NCBI GenBank assembly: GCA_035353995.1
Contig: DAOQAL010000002.1
Location: forward strand, 28,729-92,728
From: Minisyncoccota bacterium
Lineage (GTDB): Bacteria > Patescibacteriota > Minisyncoccia > Phycocordibacterales > UBA9973
Direction: 5' to 3'
Length of the DNA: 64,000 nt
In this document: piece after piece, positions 28,647 through 64,000 of the stretch
Numbering within the stretch: the first letter of the stretch is position 1
Layout: every line of letters begins with the position of its first letter
Made by a program: the position numbers and the translations under genes
Notes under the pieces: generated by a model
The model's database searches: none
What the model saw: only the letters and a program-made list of their open reading frames with translations
What the model was told of the DNA's origin: nothing

Positions 28647-29174
28647 ATGTTTGCTGATCCGATAAAAAATTTAAAACAACTTGGATTAAGAGAAGATATG
28701 ATTGTAGCTGATTTAGGGGCGGGAACAGGTTTTTATTCTATTGCTGCAGCAAAAATGGTACCAAATGGAAAAGTATATGCTATAGAAGTAATAAAAGATT
28801 ATTTGATTACTATAAAAAATAAAGCGAAAGAATTTCATATTAACAATCTTGAATGTTTTTGGGGAGATATTGAAAAACTTGGTGGAACAAAATTAAAAGA
28901 TGGCATTGTTGATGCTGTTATACTTTCGAATATTTTATCTCAAATTGAGGACAAGAGTGGTCTTGTTCTTGAAGTTAAAAGAATATTAAAACAAAATGGT
29001 AAGGTTCTTGTAGTAGACTGGTCTGAATCTTCTGCTTTAGGTCCAAAACCAGATAAAATAATTTTGAAAGATAAAGTAGTTGAAATATTTGCAAAAAAAG
29101 GATTAACTTTTAATCGTGATATTGATGCTGGTAGTCATCATTATGGTATTGTTTTAACAAATAAAAAAATATGA
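28647..29174 (+). CDS. Class I SAM-dependent methyltransferase
   Basis: Motif I VADLGAGTGFYSIAAA and motif post-I/II spacing typical of Methyltransf_11/25. Confidence 0.6.
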   Translation: MFADPIKNLKQLGLREDMIVADLGAGTGFYSIAAAKMVPNGKVYAIEVIKDYLITIKNKAKEFHINNLECFWGDIEKLGGTKLKDGIVDAVILSNILSQIEDKSGLVLEVKRILKQNGKVLVVDWSESSALGPKPDKIILKDKVVEIFAKKGLTFNRDIDAGSHHYGIVLTNKKI

Positions 29175-45791: not shown

Positions 45792-46820
45792 ATGACAACA
45801 ATATCATTCAAACCAAAGCAGGTAACAAAAAAAATAACTTCAAATCTACACAATAGAGCAAATGATGTAATCATGAATCGTTTTGGTTTGAACACTGAAG
45901 CTGAAAGAAAGACTCTCGAAGAAATTGGTAAGAAATATAATATAACTCGTGAAAGAGTAAGACAAATAGAAGAGTCAGCTCTTAACATGATAAAAAAATC
46001 AGAAGCTTATAAAGGTGAGCAGGCTGTTTTTGATGAACTAAAAGAATTGATAAACTCTTTGGGTTCTATTATTTCAGAACATGAACTTTTGTCTCACATA
46101 TCAAAAGATAAAGCAACTCAGAATCATATTCATTTTTATTTGGTATTGGGTGACGCTTTCAAAAAACACAGAGAAGATAATCACTTTCATGCACGTTGGA
46201 GTGTGAATGATGAAGTTGCACAAAAAGTACATGATTCTTTGAAAAAACTTTATGCAAGTCTTAATGATGAAGATTTAATATCAGAAACAGAAATGATAAA
46301 AAAGTTTTTTGATAATATGAAAGATTCAGTTGAAGAATACAAGAAAGAAGAAATAGTAAAGAGATGGCTTGGAATGTCAAAAACAATATCTAAAAATCCG
46401 CTTGGTGAATGGGGAAAATCAACATCTCCTAATATCCGTACTCGTGGTGTAAAAGATTATGCATTTTTAGTAATGCGACGTCATGGTTCTCCTATGCATT
46501 TCAGAGAAGTAGCTGATAATATTTCAAAAACTTTTAATAGAAAAACTCACTATGCAACATGTCACAATGAACTCATAAAAGATCCTCGTTTTGTATTAGT
46601 TGGACGTGGAATGTATGCTTTATCTGAATGGGGATATAAAGCCGGAATTGCAAGAGAAATAATTAGAGATATTCTAAAAAGAGAAGGTCCTCTTTCTAAA
46701 GATCAAGTTGTAGAAAAAGTAATGAAAGAAAGATATTTCAAGAAAAATACTATTTTGGTAAATCTTGTTAATTCAAAATATTTCAAAAAGAACAAAAACG
46801 GTCTTTATACTGCAATATAG
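45792..46820 (+). CDS. Sigma-70 region-4 HTH protein with C-terminal winged-helix (HARE-HTH-like) domain
   Basis: LNTEAERKTLEEIGKKYNITRERVRQIEESALNMIKK resembles sigma-70 region 4.2. C-terminal RGVKDYAFLVMRRHGSPMHFREVADNIS...FVLVGRGMYALSEWG resembles HARE-HTH/winged-helix modules. Confidence 0.4.
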   Translation: MTTISFKPKQVTKKITSNLHNRANDVIMNRFGLNTEAERKTLEEIGKKYNITRERVRQIEESALNMIKKSEAYKGEQAVFDELKELINSLGSIISEHELLSHISKDKATQNHIHFYLVLGDAFKKHREDNHFHARWSVNDEVAQKVHDSLKKLYASLNDEDLISETEMIKKFFDNMKDSVEEYKKEEIVKRWLGMSKTISKNPLGEWGKSTSPNIRTRGVKDYAFLVMRRHGSPMHFREVADNISKTFNRKTHYATCHNELIKDPRFVLVGRGMYALSEWGYKAGIAREIIRDILKREGPLSKDQVVEKVMKERYFKKNTILVNLVNSKYFKKNKNGLYTAI

Positions 46821-46866
46821 AATATTTTGTTTTACTTTACTCTCTCTTTATATTAATATATAAGAT

Positions 46867-48168
46867 ATGGCTGATATTCCTGTAGATATAGCTGTTTTTC
46901 TTTTTAATATTGTTTTATGGATTTTACCTCTTATCGGTACGATCTTTTTGGCTGTGGTTGCTTGGAAGTTGTGGATACATTATGTACAACAAAATTTTAT
47001 TTCTGGTATTGATTTTGTTTTATTAGAAATTGTTCCTCCACGTGATGTTCTTCGTTCACCAAAAGCTATGGAGCTTTTCTTTACTAATGCTCTTTATCAT
47101 AAAAGTACAAAGGGTGGTATTGAAGAGTTCTGGCAAGGTGCTGTTTGGTTTTGGTTTTCTCTTGAAATAGTTTCTATTGATGGACAAGTTCATTTTTATA
47201 TTAGAACACCAACGAGAATAAGAGGATTAATTGAAACACAAATGTATGCTCAATATCCTCAAGCTCAGATAAAAGAAGTTGATGATTACACTCTTGCAGT
47301 AGATGAGATTTCAGATAATAGTAAATACAATCTATGGGGATGTGAATTTTGGTTGGACAAACCAGAAGCTTATCCTATAAAAACTTATGTTGATTTTGGT
47401 TTAGATAAAGATCCTAAAGAAGAATTTAAAGTTGATCCAATCGCTCCGATAATAGAACTTTTTGGTTCTCTAAAAAAAGGAGAACAAATGTGGTTACAGT
47501 TTGTTATTACTCCAGCACGCAAAAAATATCATACAATAGGAACTTGGTTTAAAAATCATGACTGGGTTGCTGAATCAAGGCTGGAAGTTAGAAAAATATT
47601 AAAACCATATATGGCTGTTAAGGATGAAGGTAAAAGAATAGAAGTTCGTGTTCCTTCTTATTTGGAAGGTCAAGTAGAAGGTATTAATAGTAAAATAACT
47701 AAACTAGGTTTTGATTGTGGCATAAGAGCATGCTATGTTGCAAAAAAAGAATCTTACGATTTAAGTAATAGAAGAAATTTACGTCTTATTTTCCGTCAAT
47801 ACGCAACTCCATCACTAAATTGTCTTGAAAGACATAATTCAACTCAGGCTGATGCTTTTACTGCTAATTTCTTTGAATCTTTCTTTCTTATTTCTCAAAA
47901 GACGATTACTCGTTTATCAAATAGAATGCTGGAAGAATATAGAGAACGTGCATTTTTCTATACTCCATTAAGACATAAACTTTCTAGTTTTATTCCTTGG
48001 CCACTTTCACCTTATATATTTCCAAAATATTTTCACCACAATACTTTTGTTCTTAATACAGAAGAAATTGCTACACTTTGGCATTTCCCAGGTCAGATTT
48101 TGAAAGTTCCTACATTAGAACGTATAGAATCAAAAGAAGCATCACCGCCTCCAAATTTACCGATATAA
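46867..48168 (+). CDS. Hypothetical membrane-anchored protein
   Basis: N-terminal TM (IAVFLFNIVLWILPLIGTIFLAVVAW); no recognisable catalytic motifs. Confidence 0.4.
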   Translation: MADIPVDIAVFLFNIVLWILPLIGTIFLAVVAWKLWIHYVQQNFISGIDFVLLEIVPPRDVLRSPKAMELFFTNALYHKSTKGGIEEFWQGAVWFWFSLEIVSIDGQVHFYIRTPTRIRGLIETQMYAQYPQAQIKEVDDYTLAVDEISDNSKYNLWGCEFWLDKPEAYPIKTYVDFGLDKDPKEEFKVDPIAPIIELFGSLKKGEQMWLQFVITPARKKYHTIGTWFKNHDWVAESRLEVRKILKPYMAVKDEGKRIEVRVPSYLEGQVEGINSKITKLGFDCGIRACYVAKKESYDLSNRRNLRLIFRQYATPSLNCLERHNSTQADAFTANFFESFFLISQKTITRLSNRMLEEYRERAFFYTPLRHKLSSFIPWPLSPYIFPKYFHHNTFVLNTEEIATLWHFPGQILKVPTLERIESKEASPPPNLPI

Positions 48169-59706: not shown

Positions 59707-59735
59707 AAATCCCCCATATTTATAGGGGGATTTTG
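59707..59735 (+). terminator. Intrinsic terminator after rpsI
   Basis: AAAATCCCCC-ATATTTAT-AGGGGGATTTT. Confidence 0.6.
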
Positions 59736-59801: not shown

Positions 59802-60434
59802 ATGGATGAAGAAGAATCAAAAAAAAATAAAAAAACAGATCCAATTTCAGTCGGAACTGATTCAGGAAAAGAAGAAAAAGACGAGTCAGAAGTTCTTGAA
59901 TTTGAATTTAATGAAGACGGGGAAGAAGATTTCAAAAAGACAATAAAGAAACTTCGAGCTGATTTAAAAAAGGCTAAAAAAGAAAAGGATGAGTATTTAA
60001 CAGGTTGGCAAAAAGAGCGAGCTGATTTTACTAATTACAAAAAACAAGAAGAAGACAGAAAAATAAATTTTTCAGAATCAATTCGTGAAAGAATCTTAAC
60101 AAGATTTTTGACAGTGACAGATAGTTTTAATATGGCTTTTAAAAACAAAGAAGTATGGGAAAAAGTAGATGAGAGTTGGAGAAAGGGAGTTGAATATATA
60201 TATTCTCAGATGAATACAATTTTTGAGGAATACGGAGTAAAACCAGTTGGTGAAGTAGGTGAAAGCTTTGACCATAATATTCATCATTCTATTGAAATGA
60301 TTCCGACTGATAAAAAAGAAGATGATCATAAAATTGCAGAAGTAATTCAAAAAGGTTACAAATTGGGCGATCGCGTTATTCGTGTCGCCAGGGTGAATGT
60401 TTTTGAATACAAAAATGACAAACCCGCAGAATAA
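59802..60434 (+). CDS. grpE: Nucleotide exchange factor GrpE
   Basis: Acidic N-terminus; RADFTNYKKQEEDRK; C-terminal FDHNIHHSIEMIPTD...VIQKGYKLGDRVIRVARVNV. Confidence 0.85.
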   Translation: MDEEESKKNKKTDPISVGTDSGKEEKDESEVLEFEFNEDGEEDFKKTIKKLRADLKKAKKEKDEYLTGWQKERADFTNYKKQEEDRKINFSESIRERILTRFLTVTDSFNMAFKNKEVWEKVDESWRKGVEYIYSQMNTIFEEYGVKPVGEVGESFDHNIHHSIEMIPTDKKEDDHKIAEVIQKGYKLGDRVIRVARVNVFEYKNDKPAE

Positions 60435-62217
60435 AACACATTCAGCAGGCAGAGTCTCAAAGACCTGCCAAAATTGTAAATGCGAATTCACTATTGAATC
60501 GGAAGATTTTAAATTTTACGAAAAGTTTGGAGTGCAGGTACCAGGATTTTGCCATGAATGTAGATTGCAAAGAAAATTAACATGGCGCAACGAGCGTTCT
60601 TTATATAAAAGAAATTGTGGTCTCTGTGGGAAGACGGTTATCTCTGTTTTTTCCTCAGACAAACCTTTTCCTGTGTATTGTCACGATTGTTATCGTGGAC
60701 ATTCCTGGGATCCACTTTCTTATGGAGAAGAAGTTGATTTTTCAAAGCATTTTTTAGATCAATTTTTTGAATTACAACAGAAAGTTCCTAGACAATATGC
60801 TTTGGTTTTCGGTAACATTAATAGTGAATATACCAATGGTACTGGTTACAACAAAAATTGTTATTTAATTTTTGTTAGTGATCACAACGAAGATTGTTTC
60901 TATTCCTTCAATATTTACTATTGTAGAAATTCTCTTGATCTTTCAACTTGTTTTAATTGTGAGTATTGTTATGAGCTTCTAAATTGTTCCGATTGTAATC
61001 ATTGTTCATTTTCGATCGACTGTCGAGATTCCTACAATCTTCTTTTTTCCAAAGATTGTGTAAATTGTCATGACTTAGTTGGTTGTGTTGGATTGCGTAA
61101 TAAAGCATATGCAATTTTTAATGTTGTTTATTCTAAAGAAGAATACGAGAAAAGAATTTCCGATTTAGATCTTTCCTCATACCATTCAACGATGGCAATT
61201 AAATCAAAGGCGCAGGATTTGTTCAGAAAATACCCAGTGAAATACTTACATGGATCAAACAATAAAGATGTGACTGGTGATATGGTAAATAATTCAAAAA
61301 ATACACTCCATGCTTTTTCTGCTAAGAGTCTTGAAGACAGTAAATATATTATCAATGGTAACAAAGCACGGGAATCTTATGAATGTTATGTAGCGGTAGA
61401 CGATTCGGAATATTGTTTTGATAGCTTGGGTTGTGCCAATACACAAAATGTGAAAGCTAGCCATTTACCTTGGGATAGTTTTGATTGTGATTATACAGAC
61501 GCTTGTGAGAGTTCCAATAACTGTTTCGGATGTGTAGGACTTTTGCATCATGAATACTGCATTTTAAATAAAAGATATTCCAAAGAGGAATATGTAAAAT
61601 TGCGTGAAAAAATTATTGCTGGAATGAAAGAAAAACCATATACCGATAAAGAGGGAAGAACATATAACTTCGGGGAGTTTTTTCCAGCAGAGTTTTCACC
61701 TCACGATTATAATGAAACATTAGCAAATTTTTATTACCCTCTTTCAAAAGAAGAAGCAAAAAAACATGGTTACTTTTGGAAAGATCCAGAACCAAAAGAT
61801 TATACAATAACTTTAGATTCTGATAACTTACCAAACAATATAAAAAATGTGGATGATTCGATTCTAAAAGAAGTAATAGTTTGCGAGCACAAAGGAAGTT
61901 GTATCACTGACCAATGTACGGAAGCATTTAGGATAACACCTGGAGAACTCGTTTTATATCGTCGTCTTAATATTCCTTTGCCTAGGTTGTGCCACAATTG
62001 TCGTTACTATGAACGCTTGAAGCTTGAAAACCCAAAGAAACTTTGGAAGAGACAATGTCAGTGTGCTGGATCTCACTCGGAAAATGGGTTATATAAAAAT
62101 ACAGGGACGCACGAACATAAAGGAGAGAAATGCCAAACTGAATTTGAAACCAGCTATGCTCCCGATAGGAAAGAGATTGTTTATTGTGAGAAGTGTTACC
62201 AAAAAGAGGTGTATTAA
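60397..62217 (+). CDS. Cys-rich protein with terminal zinc-ribbon modules and an internally duplicated Cys-repeat core (unknown function)
   Basis: More than 50 Cys residues. N-terminal CQNCKC...CHECR...CGLCGK...YCHDCY and C-terminal CEHKGSC...CHNCRYYERLK...CQCAG...YCEKCYQK are homologous zinc ribbons. Central halves share ...GCVGL....Y.I.N..YSKEEY.K. The ORF-track start overlaps grpE by 38 nt, so the true start is probably the internal Met at about 60415. Confidence 0.5.
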   Translation: MFLNTKMTNPQNKTHSAGRVSKTCQNCKCEFTIESEDFKFYEKFGVQVPGFCHECRLQRKLTWRNERSLYKRNCGLCGKTVISVFSSDKPFPVYCHDCYRGHSWDPLSYGEEVDFSKHFLDQFFELQQKVPRQYALVFGNINSEYTNGTGYNKNCYLIFVSDHNEDCFYSFNIYYCRNSLDLSTCFNCEYCYELLNCSDCNHCSFSIDCRDSYNLLFSKDCVNCHDLVGCVGLRNKAYAIFNVVYSKEEYEKRISDLDLSSYHSTMAIKSKAQDLFRKYPVKYLHGSNNKDVTGDMVNNSKNTLHAFSAKSLEDSKYIINGNKARESYECYVAVDDSEYCFDSLGCANTQNVKASHLPWDSFDCDYTDACESSNNCFGCVGLLHHEYCILNKRYSKEEYVKLREKIIAGMKEKPYTDKEGRTYNFGEFFPAEFSPHDYNETLANFYYPLSKEEAKKHGYFWKDPEPKDYTITLDSDNLPNNIKNVDDSILKEVIVCEHKGSCITDQCTEAFRITPGELVLYRRLNIPLPRLCHNCRYYERLKLENPKKLWKRQCQCAGSHSENGLYKNTGTHEHKGEKCQTEFETSYAPDRKEIVYCEKCYQKEVY

Positions 62218-62237: not shown

Positions 62238-62348
62238 TACAGTATACTGTAGCAAATTAAATCCATTAATACAATTTATAACAGTATACTGTGGTAAATT
62301 GAATTTACCTATGTAATTTATAACAGTTTACTGTGATAAATTGAATTT
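62238..62348. repeat. Three tandem 42-bp repeats, each carrying the 12-bp palindrome ACAGTATACTGT (third copy ACAGTTTACTGT) and a TAAATTGAATTTA palindrome
   Basis: Palindrome copies begin at 62239, 62281 and 62323 with exact 42-bp spacing. They sit in the convergent gap between the Cys-rich gene and the PaaX-like gene. Confidence 0.6.
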
Positions 62349-62874
62349 AGCTTTTGATAGATTCGATGAAGGCGAGAGAAGTTTCTGGGTCTAATTTATC
62401 TGTGACAATTATCATAAGTTCTGTAGAGAGGCCCAAATCTTTTTTTATATTAGTAAAAAGATGTTCGTATGGGTGAGGGGAGATCCAAACAGTATTTTTT
62501 ATACATACAAAATTTGCTTTCTTTAAAAGATAGCGTAATGCTTCACGTTCGCTTTTTCTTTCTTCCGGTATATCTAAAATTATAATTCTCCAAAATCCAT
62601 CCCAAGTATTTGGCACCAAAGCTTCTTCTCCTTCAAGTCGTATTGAATTTAATTTACCTTGTCCCTTTTTCGTTATTTTTAAATATTTTTGATTGTCAGA
62701 ATTGTGTATTTCTACGCAACCAGATTCAACTAATTGTTTGATTGAACGGGCTAAAGCATAGTTCCTTTTAGGATCATTATCCTTAATTGTGTCAAAAGAA
62801 ATTGCTGGTTTTTCTGCTAAAATTTTTAAAATAGCCTTTTGAATATTAGATTTTTTGGAATTTTCAGATTTCAT
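62347..62874 (-). CDS. PaaX-family-like transcriptional regulator (winged-helix N-terminus, PaaX_C-like C-terminus)
   Basis: WDGFWRIIILDIPEERKSEREALRYLLKKANFVCIKNTVWISPHP matches the PaaX C-terminal consensus W.G.W.L.....PE..R..R..LR..L...GFG.L....W(I/V)SP as recalled from memory. Confidence 0.45.
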   Translation of the reverse strand: MKSENSKKSNIQKAILKILAEKPAISFDTIKDNDPKRNYALARSIKQLVESGCVEIHNSDNQKYLKITKKGQGKLNSIRLEGEEALVPNTWDGFWRIIILDIPEERKSEREALRYLLKKANFVCIKNTVWISPHPYEHLFTNIKKDLGLSTELMIIVTDKLDPETSLAFIESIKS

Positions 62875-62907
62875 ATTGACATTATAACATAGCTGAATAT
62901 AATATCA

Positions 62908-62963
62908 ACAAGTATTTTGCGACCGCGAAATACTTGTCAAAAATGGGTGTATTAGTATATAAT
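62908..62963 (+). promoter_or_regulatory. Promoter (TTGTCA-N18-TATAAT) whose -35 is embedded in a 10-bp inverted repeat ACAAGTATTT-N10-AAATACTTGT: candidate operator in the divergent regulator / DUF3467 intergenic region
   Basis: Inverted-repeat arms at 62908-62917 and 62928-62937; TTGTCA at 62934-62939; TATAAT at 62958-62963. Confidence 0.35.
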
Positions 62964-62979
62964 GGTTTTATTAGTTAGA

Positions 62980-63017
62980 AACCCCGAAAGTCGAAGTCGG
63001 GAAATAAAATAAATAAA
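62980..63017 (+). repeat. 38-bp 5'-UTR element AACCCCGAAAGTCGAAGTCGGGAAATAAAATAAATAAA (copy 1), ending 3 nt before the ATG at 63021
   Basis: Identical 38-mer recurs at 63305-63342 in front of dnaK. Contains a CCCGA...UCGGG stem. Confidence 0.5.
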
Positions 63018-63020
63018 TAT

Positions 63021-63299
63021 ATGATAGATCCAAAAAAAATAGATTTTAATCAATTGCCAAAGAAGTTTTGTGACGGAGCAATTGGAGCATTTAATAAAGA
63101 ATCATTTTTCTTTGCTTTCACATCCGGAAATAATTTGGATGTCTTTGCTACTACTCCGAGAACAATGAAAGATATTGCGATTTTTCTGACAAGACATGTT
63201 GAAAATTATGAAAAACAATTCGGAGAAATAGATATGACCATTCCTGAAATACCGAGCCCACTTCAAATGTCCGATTTGGGTAGTTCTGATAAAAAATAA
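63021..63299 (+). CDS. DUF3467-like small protein
   Basis: GAIGAFNKESFFFAFTSGNNLDVFATTPRTMKDIAIFLTRHVENYEKQFGEI follows the DUF3467 pattern (A....HS.SEF.LDF...P.......R....P.HAK.L...L.ENV..YE) as recalled from memory. Confidence 0.4.
   Translation: MIDPKKIDFNQLPKKFCDGAIGAFNKESFFFAFTSGNNLDVFATTPRTMKDIAIFLTRHVENYEKQFGEIDMTIPEIPSPLQMSDLGSSDKK

Positions 63300-63349: not shown

Positions 63350-64000
<651 letters not shown>

Follow-up and report, generated by a model that had tools for sequence, protein, structure and literature searches.

A cysteine-rich open reading frame (ORF) directly downstream of grpE in contig DAOQAL010000002.1 of a Minisyncoccota bacterium belongs to a very large, unnamed and paralogous protein family of the Paceibacteria (Parcubacteria), and this family is reciprocally associated with soluble ATPases of the VirD4/TraD type. 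The ORF is a genuine gene, located on the plus strand at 60397..62217 of the stretch of DNA that was analyzed (the window; 64 kb, contig positions 28,729 to 92,728). Tentatively, and at slightly less than an even chance, we favor the view that the Cys-rich proteins are adaptors or specificity factors for these orphan VirD4/TraD-like ATPases. The terminal modules of the protein are of a known zinc-ribbon type; the family and the family-ATPase module are of a new kind, because no curated family, no solved structure and none of the papers found describes the core or the module. A description of the Cys-rich family was not found in the literature. Paceibacteria genomes measure about 1 Mb, yet many of them devote up to 10 kb or more to arrays of this family, a cost that implies an important lineage-specific function. 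Here we present the gene model and the anatomy of the protein, together with its family, its gene neighborhood and the explanations that were considered.

Gene model and protein anatomy

The ORF is uninterrupted and encodes 606 aa when counted from the first ATG; residue numbers below refer to this form. A database protein (P0001, 'hypothetical protein', from a metagenome-assembled genome of Candidatus Paceibacterota) is 100% identical and begins at the second ATG, so that position 60415 is the probable start, the product has 600 aa and the overlap with grpE (59802..60434, plus strand) shrinks from 38 nt to 20 nt. The original prediction, which was made from the sequence, had reported the 606-aa ORF, a 38-nt overlap and an internal Met near 60415 as the real start; the ORF and the internal start are borne out by these data, and the 38-nt figure holds for the first ATG only. 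The motifs quoted in it are present in the sequence. Its figure of more than 50 cysteines was too high, as 40 were counted. Even so, Cys makes up 6.6% of the protein, as compared with a median of 0.58% and a next highest value of 2.0% among the other 44 ORFs of at least 150 aa in the window. The protein is soluble and cytoplasmic, with no signal peptide and no membrane segment found, and none of the family members has the kind of hydrophobic segment that marks membrane or secreted proteins.

The overall layout is nearly mirror-like: a basic ribbon pair, two repeat stacks, an alpha/beta module and a second basic ribbon pair, all read from the plus strand. The N-terminal zinc-ribbon pair (60448..60711, residues 18-105) consists of two Cys4 ribbons and a basic conserved linker, with a net charge of about +2.6. 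Ribbon 1 is zf_Tbcl-like (C24/C27...C52/C55), and ribbon 2 (C74-x2-C77-x17-C95-x2-C98) has the exact CxxC-x17-CxxC spacing. The first beta-repeat stack, M1 (60814..61110, residues 140-238), is built of about eight 12-residue repeats in which Cys, Ser or Asn occupy positions 1, 4 and 10. This stack is followed by a cap motif (..YSKEEY..) and a helical linker (61111..61260), the most variable segment, and then by the second 12-residue-repeat stack, M2 (61261..61557, residues 289-387), which is homologous to M1 with most Cys replaced; both stacks end in GCVGL....Y.I.N..YSKEEY. A second cap and the alpha/beta module (61558..61824, residues 388-476) form the most conserved part of the family (PY.D..GR.Y.YGEFFP.ELSPFAYNET) and are modeled at a predicted local distance difference test score (pLDDT) above 90. 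The C-terminal zinc-ribbon pair (61873..62214, residues 493-606) is homologous to the N-terminal pair and contains 10 conserved Cys as well as conserved His.

Both internal duplications were assessed by Smith-Waterman alignment against 500 composition-preserving shuffles. Regarding the N-terminal (residues 1-115) and C-terminal (residues 481-606) modules, the score was 97 against 31+/-5.7 for the shuffles (z=11.5). Regarding the central halves, which share 32% identity over 130 aa, the score was 140 against 35+/-6.5 (z=16.1). Because the scores far exceed those of the shuffles, the two duplications, each of which had been predicted, are real and not artefacts of composition.

Conservation across the family is highest in the termini, which hold 18 conserved Cys, and in the alpha/beta module; the repeats and the linker are more variable. 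Judging from the residue pattern, four or five Cys4 sites would coordinate zinc and so stabilize the protein. In Methanosarcina mazei, CxxC-x17-CxxC proteins have been shown by inductively coupled plasma mass spectrometry to bind zinc (PMC12704099). Most Cys of M1 reach a conservation of just 40-80%, with Ser, Asn or Leu in their place in M2 and in paralogs, and thus resemble a structural ladder more than an obligatory metal site. Net charge is positive in the ribbon modules (about +2 to +3), which are basic, and mildly acidic values prevail in the repeat stacks. The net charge of the stacks is small, at about -4 to -5 for every 100 residues, and a strong DNA-mimic reading was ruled out.

Profile searches and predicted structure

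Scans of the whole protein and of two central pieces against Pfam, NCBIfam, PADLOC and PHROGs yielded only sub-threshold zinc ribbons and one weak PHROG with no function assigned. The ribbon scores were 19.5 bits for zf_Tbcl_2 (PF23477; cut-off 27) and 15.8 bits for TIGR04272 (cut-off 36). Among 45 relatives, 13 matched zf_Tbcl (PF13451) in ribbons 1 and 3 (best E 2.1e-5), a family to which the window protein itself has no match, and 13 matched zf_Tbcl_2 (E<0.1); precomputed PF13451 assignments were found on 3 of 120 homologs among the matches listed. The central approximately 380 residues match nothing in Pfam (the central pieces even at E<=10), NCBIfam, PADLOC or PDB, and sequence searches of the PDB with the single protein and with the family profile returned nothing useful.

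An AlphaFold2 model of the full-length protein (45 homologs) had a pLDDT of 81 and a predicted template modeling score of 0.84, with values above 90 at the ends and in residues 390-470, and of 60-70 in M1 and M2. A model of the central 376 residues (149 sequences) reached a pLDDT of 78 and showed M1 and M2 as stacks of short strands. The strands assigned by DSSP are in register with the 12-mers defined by Cys, Ser or Asn at the three positions named above. Autocorrelation of the M1 profile was strongest at lag 12 (z 2.2); for M2, lag 12 was raised (z 1.4) but stayed below lags 3 and 21.

When compared using Foldseek, the full model yielded nothing in the PDB at E<=1e-3 and only zinc-ribbon proteins in BFVD. 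The central model gave only insignificant beta-helix matches in the PDB (E 7e-3 to 6, TM-score 0.07-0.11 relative to the query), namely right-handed beta-helix enzymes and the beetle 12-residue antifreeze helix. The best match to a pectate-lyase-like right-handed parallel beta-helix, 2uve, was likewise insignificant (E 7.4e-3, TM-score 0.08, root-mean-square deviation 16 A). As a fold arrangement, the protein core appears to be without a solved or annotated relative.

Family size, arrays and distribution

More than 5855 matches to the family were scored from 8000 candidates, all of them about 590 aa long. The organism is a member of the Patescibacteria wherever the source names one, and every protein name is 'hypothetical'. 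An exhaustive search yielded 3620 clusters at 50% identity (E<=1e-3), or 1410 at E<=1e-30. The architecture is uniform: no domain fusions were seen, and the longest members differ by N-terminal ORF extensions only. A phage origin was ruled out: a set of 50,697 phage records gave no match, and IMG/VR gave a single marginal fragment.

A family-anchored sample of 80 loci was taken from species-representative genomes and contained 179 family copies, with 2-7 copies within 14 kb in 48 of the 80 loci. All 69 adjacent family pairs are co-directional, at a median gap of 26 nt. The paralogs are old, as the median identity within a locus is 42% and 114 of 118 copies are closest to a copy from a different genome. 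Elsewhere in the window, no paralogs of the Cys-rich ORF were found. In a relative of 67% identity, a three-copy array (L084:10001-15344) sits amid the purine biosynthesis operon, between purN-like and purD-like genes, and arrays therefore occupy housekeeping operons. In a relative of 63% identity, a family copy lies between pgk and recJ, and two copies precede argS/ileS in a relative of 55% identity.

Association with VirD4/TraD-like ATPases

The most frequent non-self neighbor in the family-anchored sample is a P-loop ATPase, of which 32 copies were found in 24 of the 80 loci; where a family gene and an ATPase gene are directly adjacent, they are co-directional in all cases (21 of 21, median gap 90 nt). 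The ATPases match TrwB_AAD_bind, T4SS-DNA_transf, TraG-D_C and DUF87 in Pfam and TraD/VirD4-like models in NCBIfam, the latter at 45-49 bits versus equivalog cut-offs of 250-650, and are thus very divergent. Most of them have no hydrophobic segment. In eight of the 32, the ATPase domain is followed by a CxxC-x17-CxxC ribbon (consensus C..CG....VPF.P...RPVYC..C), and one of these ribbons passes both curated cut-offs (41.8 bits, cut-off 27; 44.8 bits, cut-off 36). A long low-complexity tail follows the ribbon in several of the ATPases (L031:3810-5912, L047:557-2743, L018:8234-10297, L029:4-2364, L081:327-2399 and others).

In the reverse direction, 15 ATPases were used as queries against metagenome contigs, and the family was scored within 7 kb of the ATPase in the resulting 80 ATPase-anchored loci. 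The family was present in 54 of the 80 loci, in 30 of the 36 loci (83%) that were at least 12 kb long, and in 14 of the 20 long loci that contained no dnaJ. Among the family copies, 96 of 100 were co-directional. The association between the family and the soluble VirD4-like ATPases is therefore reciprocal. A survey published in 2025 counted 5713 VirD4-like homologues among 2918 genomes of Patescibacteria; just 148 of these homologues were located near virB4, and exaptation for another function was left open (PMC12102498).

Several observations weigh against a partnership of this kind. No ATPase lies within 6 kb in 56 of the 80 family-anchored loci, and a VirD4-like ATPase was looked for across the window and not found. 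The loci are phylogenetically non-independent, and relatives of a single query lineage predominate in the ATPase-anchored sample. The ribbon scores of the window protein itself fall under both curated cut-offs, and its repeat regions were modeled at a pLDDT of just 60-83. The partnership, and all that is proposed about function, is inferred from gene neighborhood.

At 45792-48168 of the window, a sigma-70 region-4/HARE-HTH protein adjoins a protein of about 435 aa without Pfam domains. The same pair lies just upstream of arrays of ATPase and Cys-rich genes in four loci of other genomes (L018, L030, L044 and L077).

Proposed function and alternatives

In the explanation that we favor, the conserved ribbon pairs and the alpha/beta module would be the docking sites for a shared partner, which might be nucleic acid or the ATPase itself, and the more variable repeat stacks would give each paralog a binding specificity of its own. 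The family would then be a zinc-stabilized adaptor or specificity factor for orphan coupling-protein-like motors, comparable in role, though different in fold, to what TraM or TrwA are to conjugative coupling proteins. The location behind grpE would reflect a lineage-specific habit of arrays and ATPases sitting in the grpE-dnaK-dnaJ region and not a DnaJ-like function.

A more far-reaching and more doubtful proposal is that the arrays and the orphan soluble ATPases constitute an unrecognized, Paceibacteria-wide machine, in which a motor is steered by zinc-ribbon/beta-solenoid specificity subunits. If this were true, the machine might serve, e.g., in handling scavenged nucleic acid or in handing over proteins at the symbiont-host interface; it would account for the thousands of coupling-protein homologues whose genes lie apart from any secretion system, and for the embedding of the module in an Hsp70 operon in one lineage. 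A reciprocal, co-directional partner that shares the zinc ribbon offers a testable handle on the role of the approximately 5700 VirD4-like ATPases away from secretion genes (PMC12102498).

The alternative that survives best, albeit as an unlikely one, is that the proteins are stand-alone nucleic-acid binders (regulators, or RNA or DNA chaperones) and that the proximity of the ATPase is historical and not functional. Treble-clef ribbons commonly bind nucleic acids, the ribbon pairs are basic, with Arg and aromatic residues conserved in their linkers, and most family loci contain no ATPase, all of which suits such a role. The strength of the reverse association in the long ATPase loci, the ribbon type that both partners have in common and their consistent co-direction nevertheless argue for a functional link.

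Chaperone neighborhood

The position of the gene suggests a further alternative, which we consider improbable: an accessory of the Hsp70 system, i.e., a zinc-finger client-holding or co-chaperone protein that works with GrpE, DnaK and DnaJ. Since the two genes overlap and a hairpin terminator after rpsI (59711-59728) precedes grpE, grpE and the Cys-rich ORF look like one transcription unit and are probably co-transcribed. The original prediction had placed the ORF between grpE and dnaK, and grpE is indeed directly upstream. On the other side, the Cys-rich ORF is separated from dnaK by two genes. The first encodes a PaaX-like winged-helix regulator (62347..62874, minus strand) and is convergent with the Cys-rich ORF and divergent from the genes that follow. 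The second is a DUF3467-like ORF of 92 aa (63021..63299, plus strand; 23.9 bits, just below the cut-off of 25). Only the 5' part of dnaK (63357..64000, plus strand) is included, as the 3' edge of the window falls inside this gene. A sigma-70-like promoter with a 12/12 consensus (62876..62903, plus strand; TTGACA-16-TATAAT) precedes the DUF3467-like ORF and dnaK, which look like a second unit, so that dnaK would be transcriptionally apart from the Cys-rich ORF; this separate promoter counts against the Hsp70 reading.

Regarding synteny, the nearest relatives (76% identity) have either the order grpE-582-592-567-568-PaaX(-)-Hsp70, with four family copies, or at least three copies after grpE. The slot behind grpE is thus conserved at short range, and the array in the window is reduced. 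In one Paceibacteria lineage the genes form a conserved block, (family)-PaaX(-)-dnaK-ATPase-family(0-3)-ATPase-dnaJ-(family)-membrane protein-arginase(-), to the left edge of which the window corresponds, as far as dnaK, where it stops. In the family-anchored sample, chaperone genes were found within 6 kb in 10 of the 80 loci (dnaJ in 9, true dnaK in 3, grpE in 1). The chaperone synteny is therefore real and confined to certain lineages; approximately 88% of the family loci contain no chaperone genes, and copies occur in the pur, pgk-recJ and argS/ileS contexts instead. The co-occurrence with grpE and dnaK that had been proposed as a check accordingly holds for close relatives and for one lineage and fails for most family loci, and the chaperone-neighborhood reading is left weakly supported, by synteny in those lineages.

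The protein is not a DnaJ, as had been stated: there was no match to PF00226 at E<=1, no HPD motif, no CxxCxGxG motif (by regular expression and by PF00684) and no DnaJ_C domain (PF01556). Profile searches and structure prediction, also suggested at the outset, found zinc ribbons, if below threshold, and no zinc finger of the DnaJ type. Five of the nine DnaJ proteins encoded near family members are full type I forms with four CxxCxGxG motifs, and four are short forms without the finger. Because the family is found together with full type I DnaJ that has a zinc finger of its own, the family does not systematically supply a missing DnaJ finger, and a split DnaJ, in which a finger-less DnaJ is complemented by the Cys-rich protein, was ruled out. 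Several divergent paralogs per genome would also be unexpected for a core co-chaperone.

The short DnaJ variants (L031:11938-12609, L032:5302-5955, L057:1678-2328 and L066:5289-5948) measure 216-223 aa and have a J domain with HPD and no CxxCxGxG. They occupy the same conserved block in which other genomes have a full-length type I DnaJ.

Further signals were observed around the PaaX-like gene. A perfect palindrome of 12 bp, ACAGTATACTGT, occurs three times exactly 42 bp apart (62239-62250, 62281-62292 and 62323-62334; one mismatch in the third copy). All three copies lie in the spacer where the 3' ends of the convergent Cys-rich ORF and PaaX-like gene face each other, and the rest of the 64 kb contains none, at a chance expectation of 0.09. 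These palindromes could be a putative operator array for a regulator. The intergenic region on the other side of the PaaX-like gene (62875-63020) also holds a minus-strand promoter (11/12, with extended TG) and a 14-nt inverted repeat (93%; 62908-62921 and 62924-62937). As no controlling inverted repeat of chaperone expression (CIRCE) element was found in the window, the PaaX-like regulator may control dnaK in place of HrcA. The pairing of PaaX(-) with dnaK recurs in seven related loci (L031, L091, L092, L096, L102, L105 and L107). Two Logan contigs from independent short-read assemblies of the locus of the Cys-rich ORF (L082 and L083) both break approximately 130 nt past the PaaX-like gene, inside the promoter and inverted-repeat region, which suggests a repeat or strain variation at that site.

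Other explanations

About as improbable as an Hsp70 accessory are secreted effectors, i.e., tandem paralogs that are sent into host cells and recognized by the neighboring coupling-protein-like ATPase, in the manner of the Beps and virD4 of Bartonella. The tandem arrays do adjoin VirD4-like genes, and the Patescibacteria are episymbionts in which the type IV secretion system matters for growth (PMC12102498). The ATPases are, however, soluble; they are almost never near virB4 (PMC12102498), and the paralogs are ancient, with conserved orthologs, and not fast-evolving. The uniform architecture with its strongly conserved ends also speaks against effectors; multi-zinc folds would be poor substrates for unfolding, and neither a BID domain nor any other effector domain was found in a Pfam scan.

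A metal-handling or redox protein, in which the Cys ladder of M1 would bind Fe-S clusters or store and buffer metal, is less probable still. Its attraction lies in the high Cys content, with up to three Cys in a single coil of M1, and in the recurrence of CutA1 (divalent-ion tolerance) near the family/ATPase module (6 of the 80 family-anchored and 8 of the 80 ATPase-anchored loci). It is at odds with the weak conservation and the replacement of the M1 Cys described above, and searches for a 4Fe-4S ferredoxin (CX2CX2CX3C motif, Fer4 profile) or a metallothionein profile found no match.

An anti-phage or inter-genomic conflict system composed of a HerA/FtsK-like ATPase and a variable sensor is very improbable, since the resemblance of an ATPase with variable paralogs to some defense systems and a weak HerA_antiphage match of the ATPase (19 bits) are outweighed by the lack of any match among the PADLOC anti-phage models (0 families) and of any nuclease or other effector domain found, by the embedding of the genes in housekeeping operons at conserved positions, and by the near absence of the family from viral contigs and its absence from phage records.

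Comparison with known systems

The Cys-rich protein resembles the zinc finger of DnaJ (Hsp40) in that it is Cys-rich, would have two zinc centers and is encoded among grpE, dnaK and dnaJ. Unlike DnaJ, it lacks a J domain, CxxCxGxG repeats and the DnaJ C-terminal domain; the Cys spacing and the predicted fold differ as well, and canonical DnaJ co-occurs with the family.

With the narrow 12-residue beta-helix of the Tenebrio molitor antifreeze protein (1ezg), the repeat stacks share the repeat length and Cys or small residues at fixed positions. A disulfide-filled core is unlikely because the protein is cytoplasmic. There is also no carbohydrate-active or ice-binding context, and the fold matches are insignificant.

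The zf_Tbcl, zf_Tbcl_2 and TIGR04272 ribbons are the closest relatives of the terminal modules: ribbon 2 of the window protein has their exact CxxC-x17-CxxC spacing, and the neighboring ATPases carry a bona fide copy. These ribbons are, however, modules of 35-40 residues with no function assigned and correspond to less than 15% of the Cys-rich protein, the 380-residue core of which has no counterpart in them.

With respect to the proposed role, the systems to be compared are the accessory factors of coupling proteins (TraM, TrwA) and the Bep arrays beside virD4 in Bartonella. The Cys-rich family has neither the ribbon-helix-helix domain of the former nor the BID domain of the latter, and the ATPases described here differ from conjugative coupling proteins in being soluble, with no hydrophobic segments in most of them, very divergent and located outside type IV secretion loci. 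What the family has in common with both systems is the arrangement of its genes, i.e., tandem paralogs that are co-directional with an ATPase of the VirD4/TraD type.

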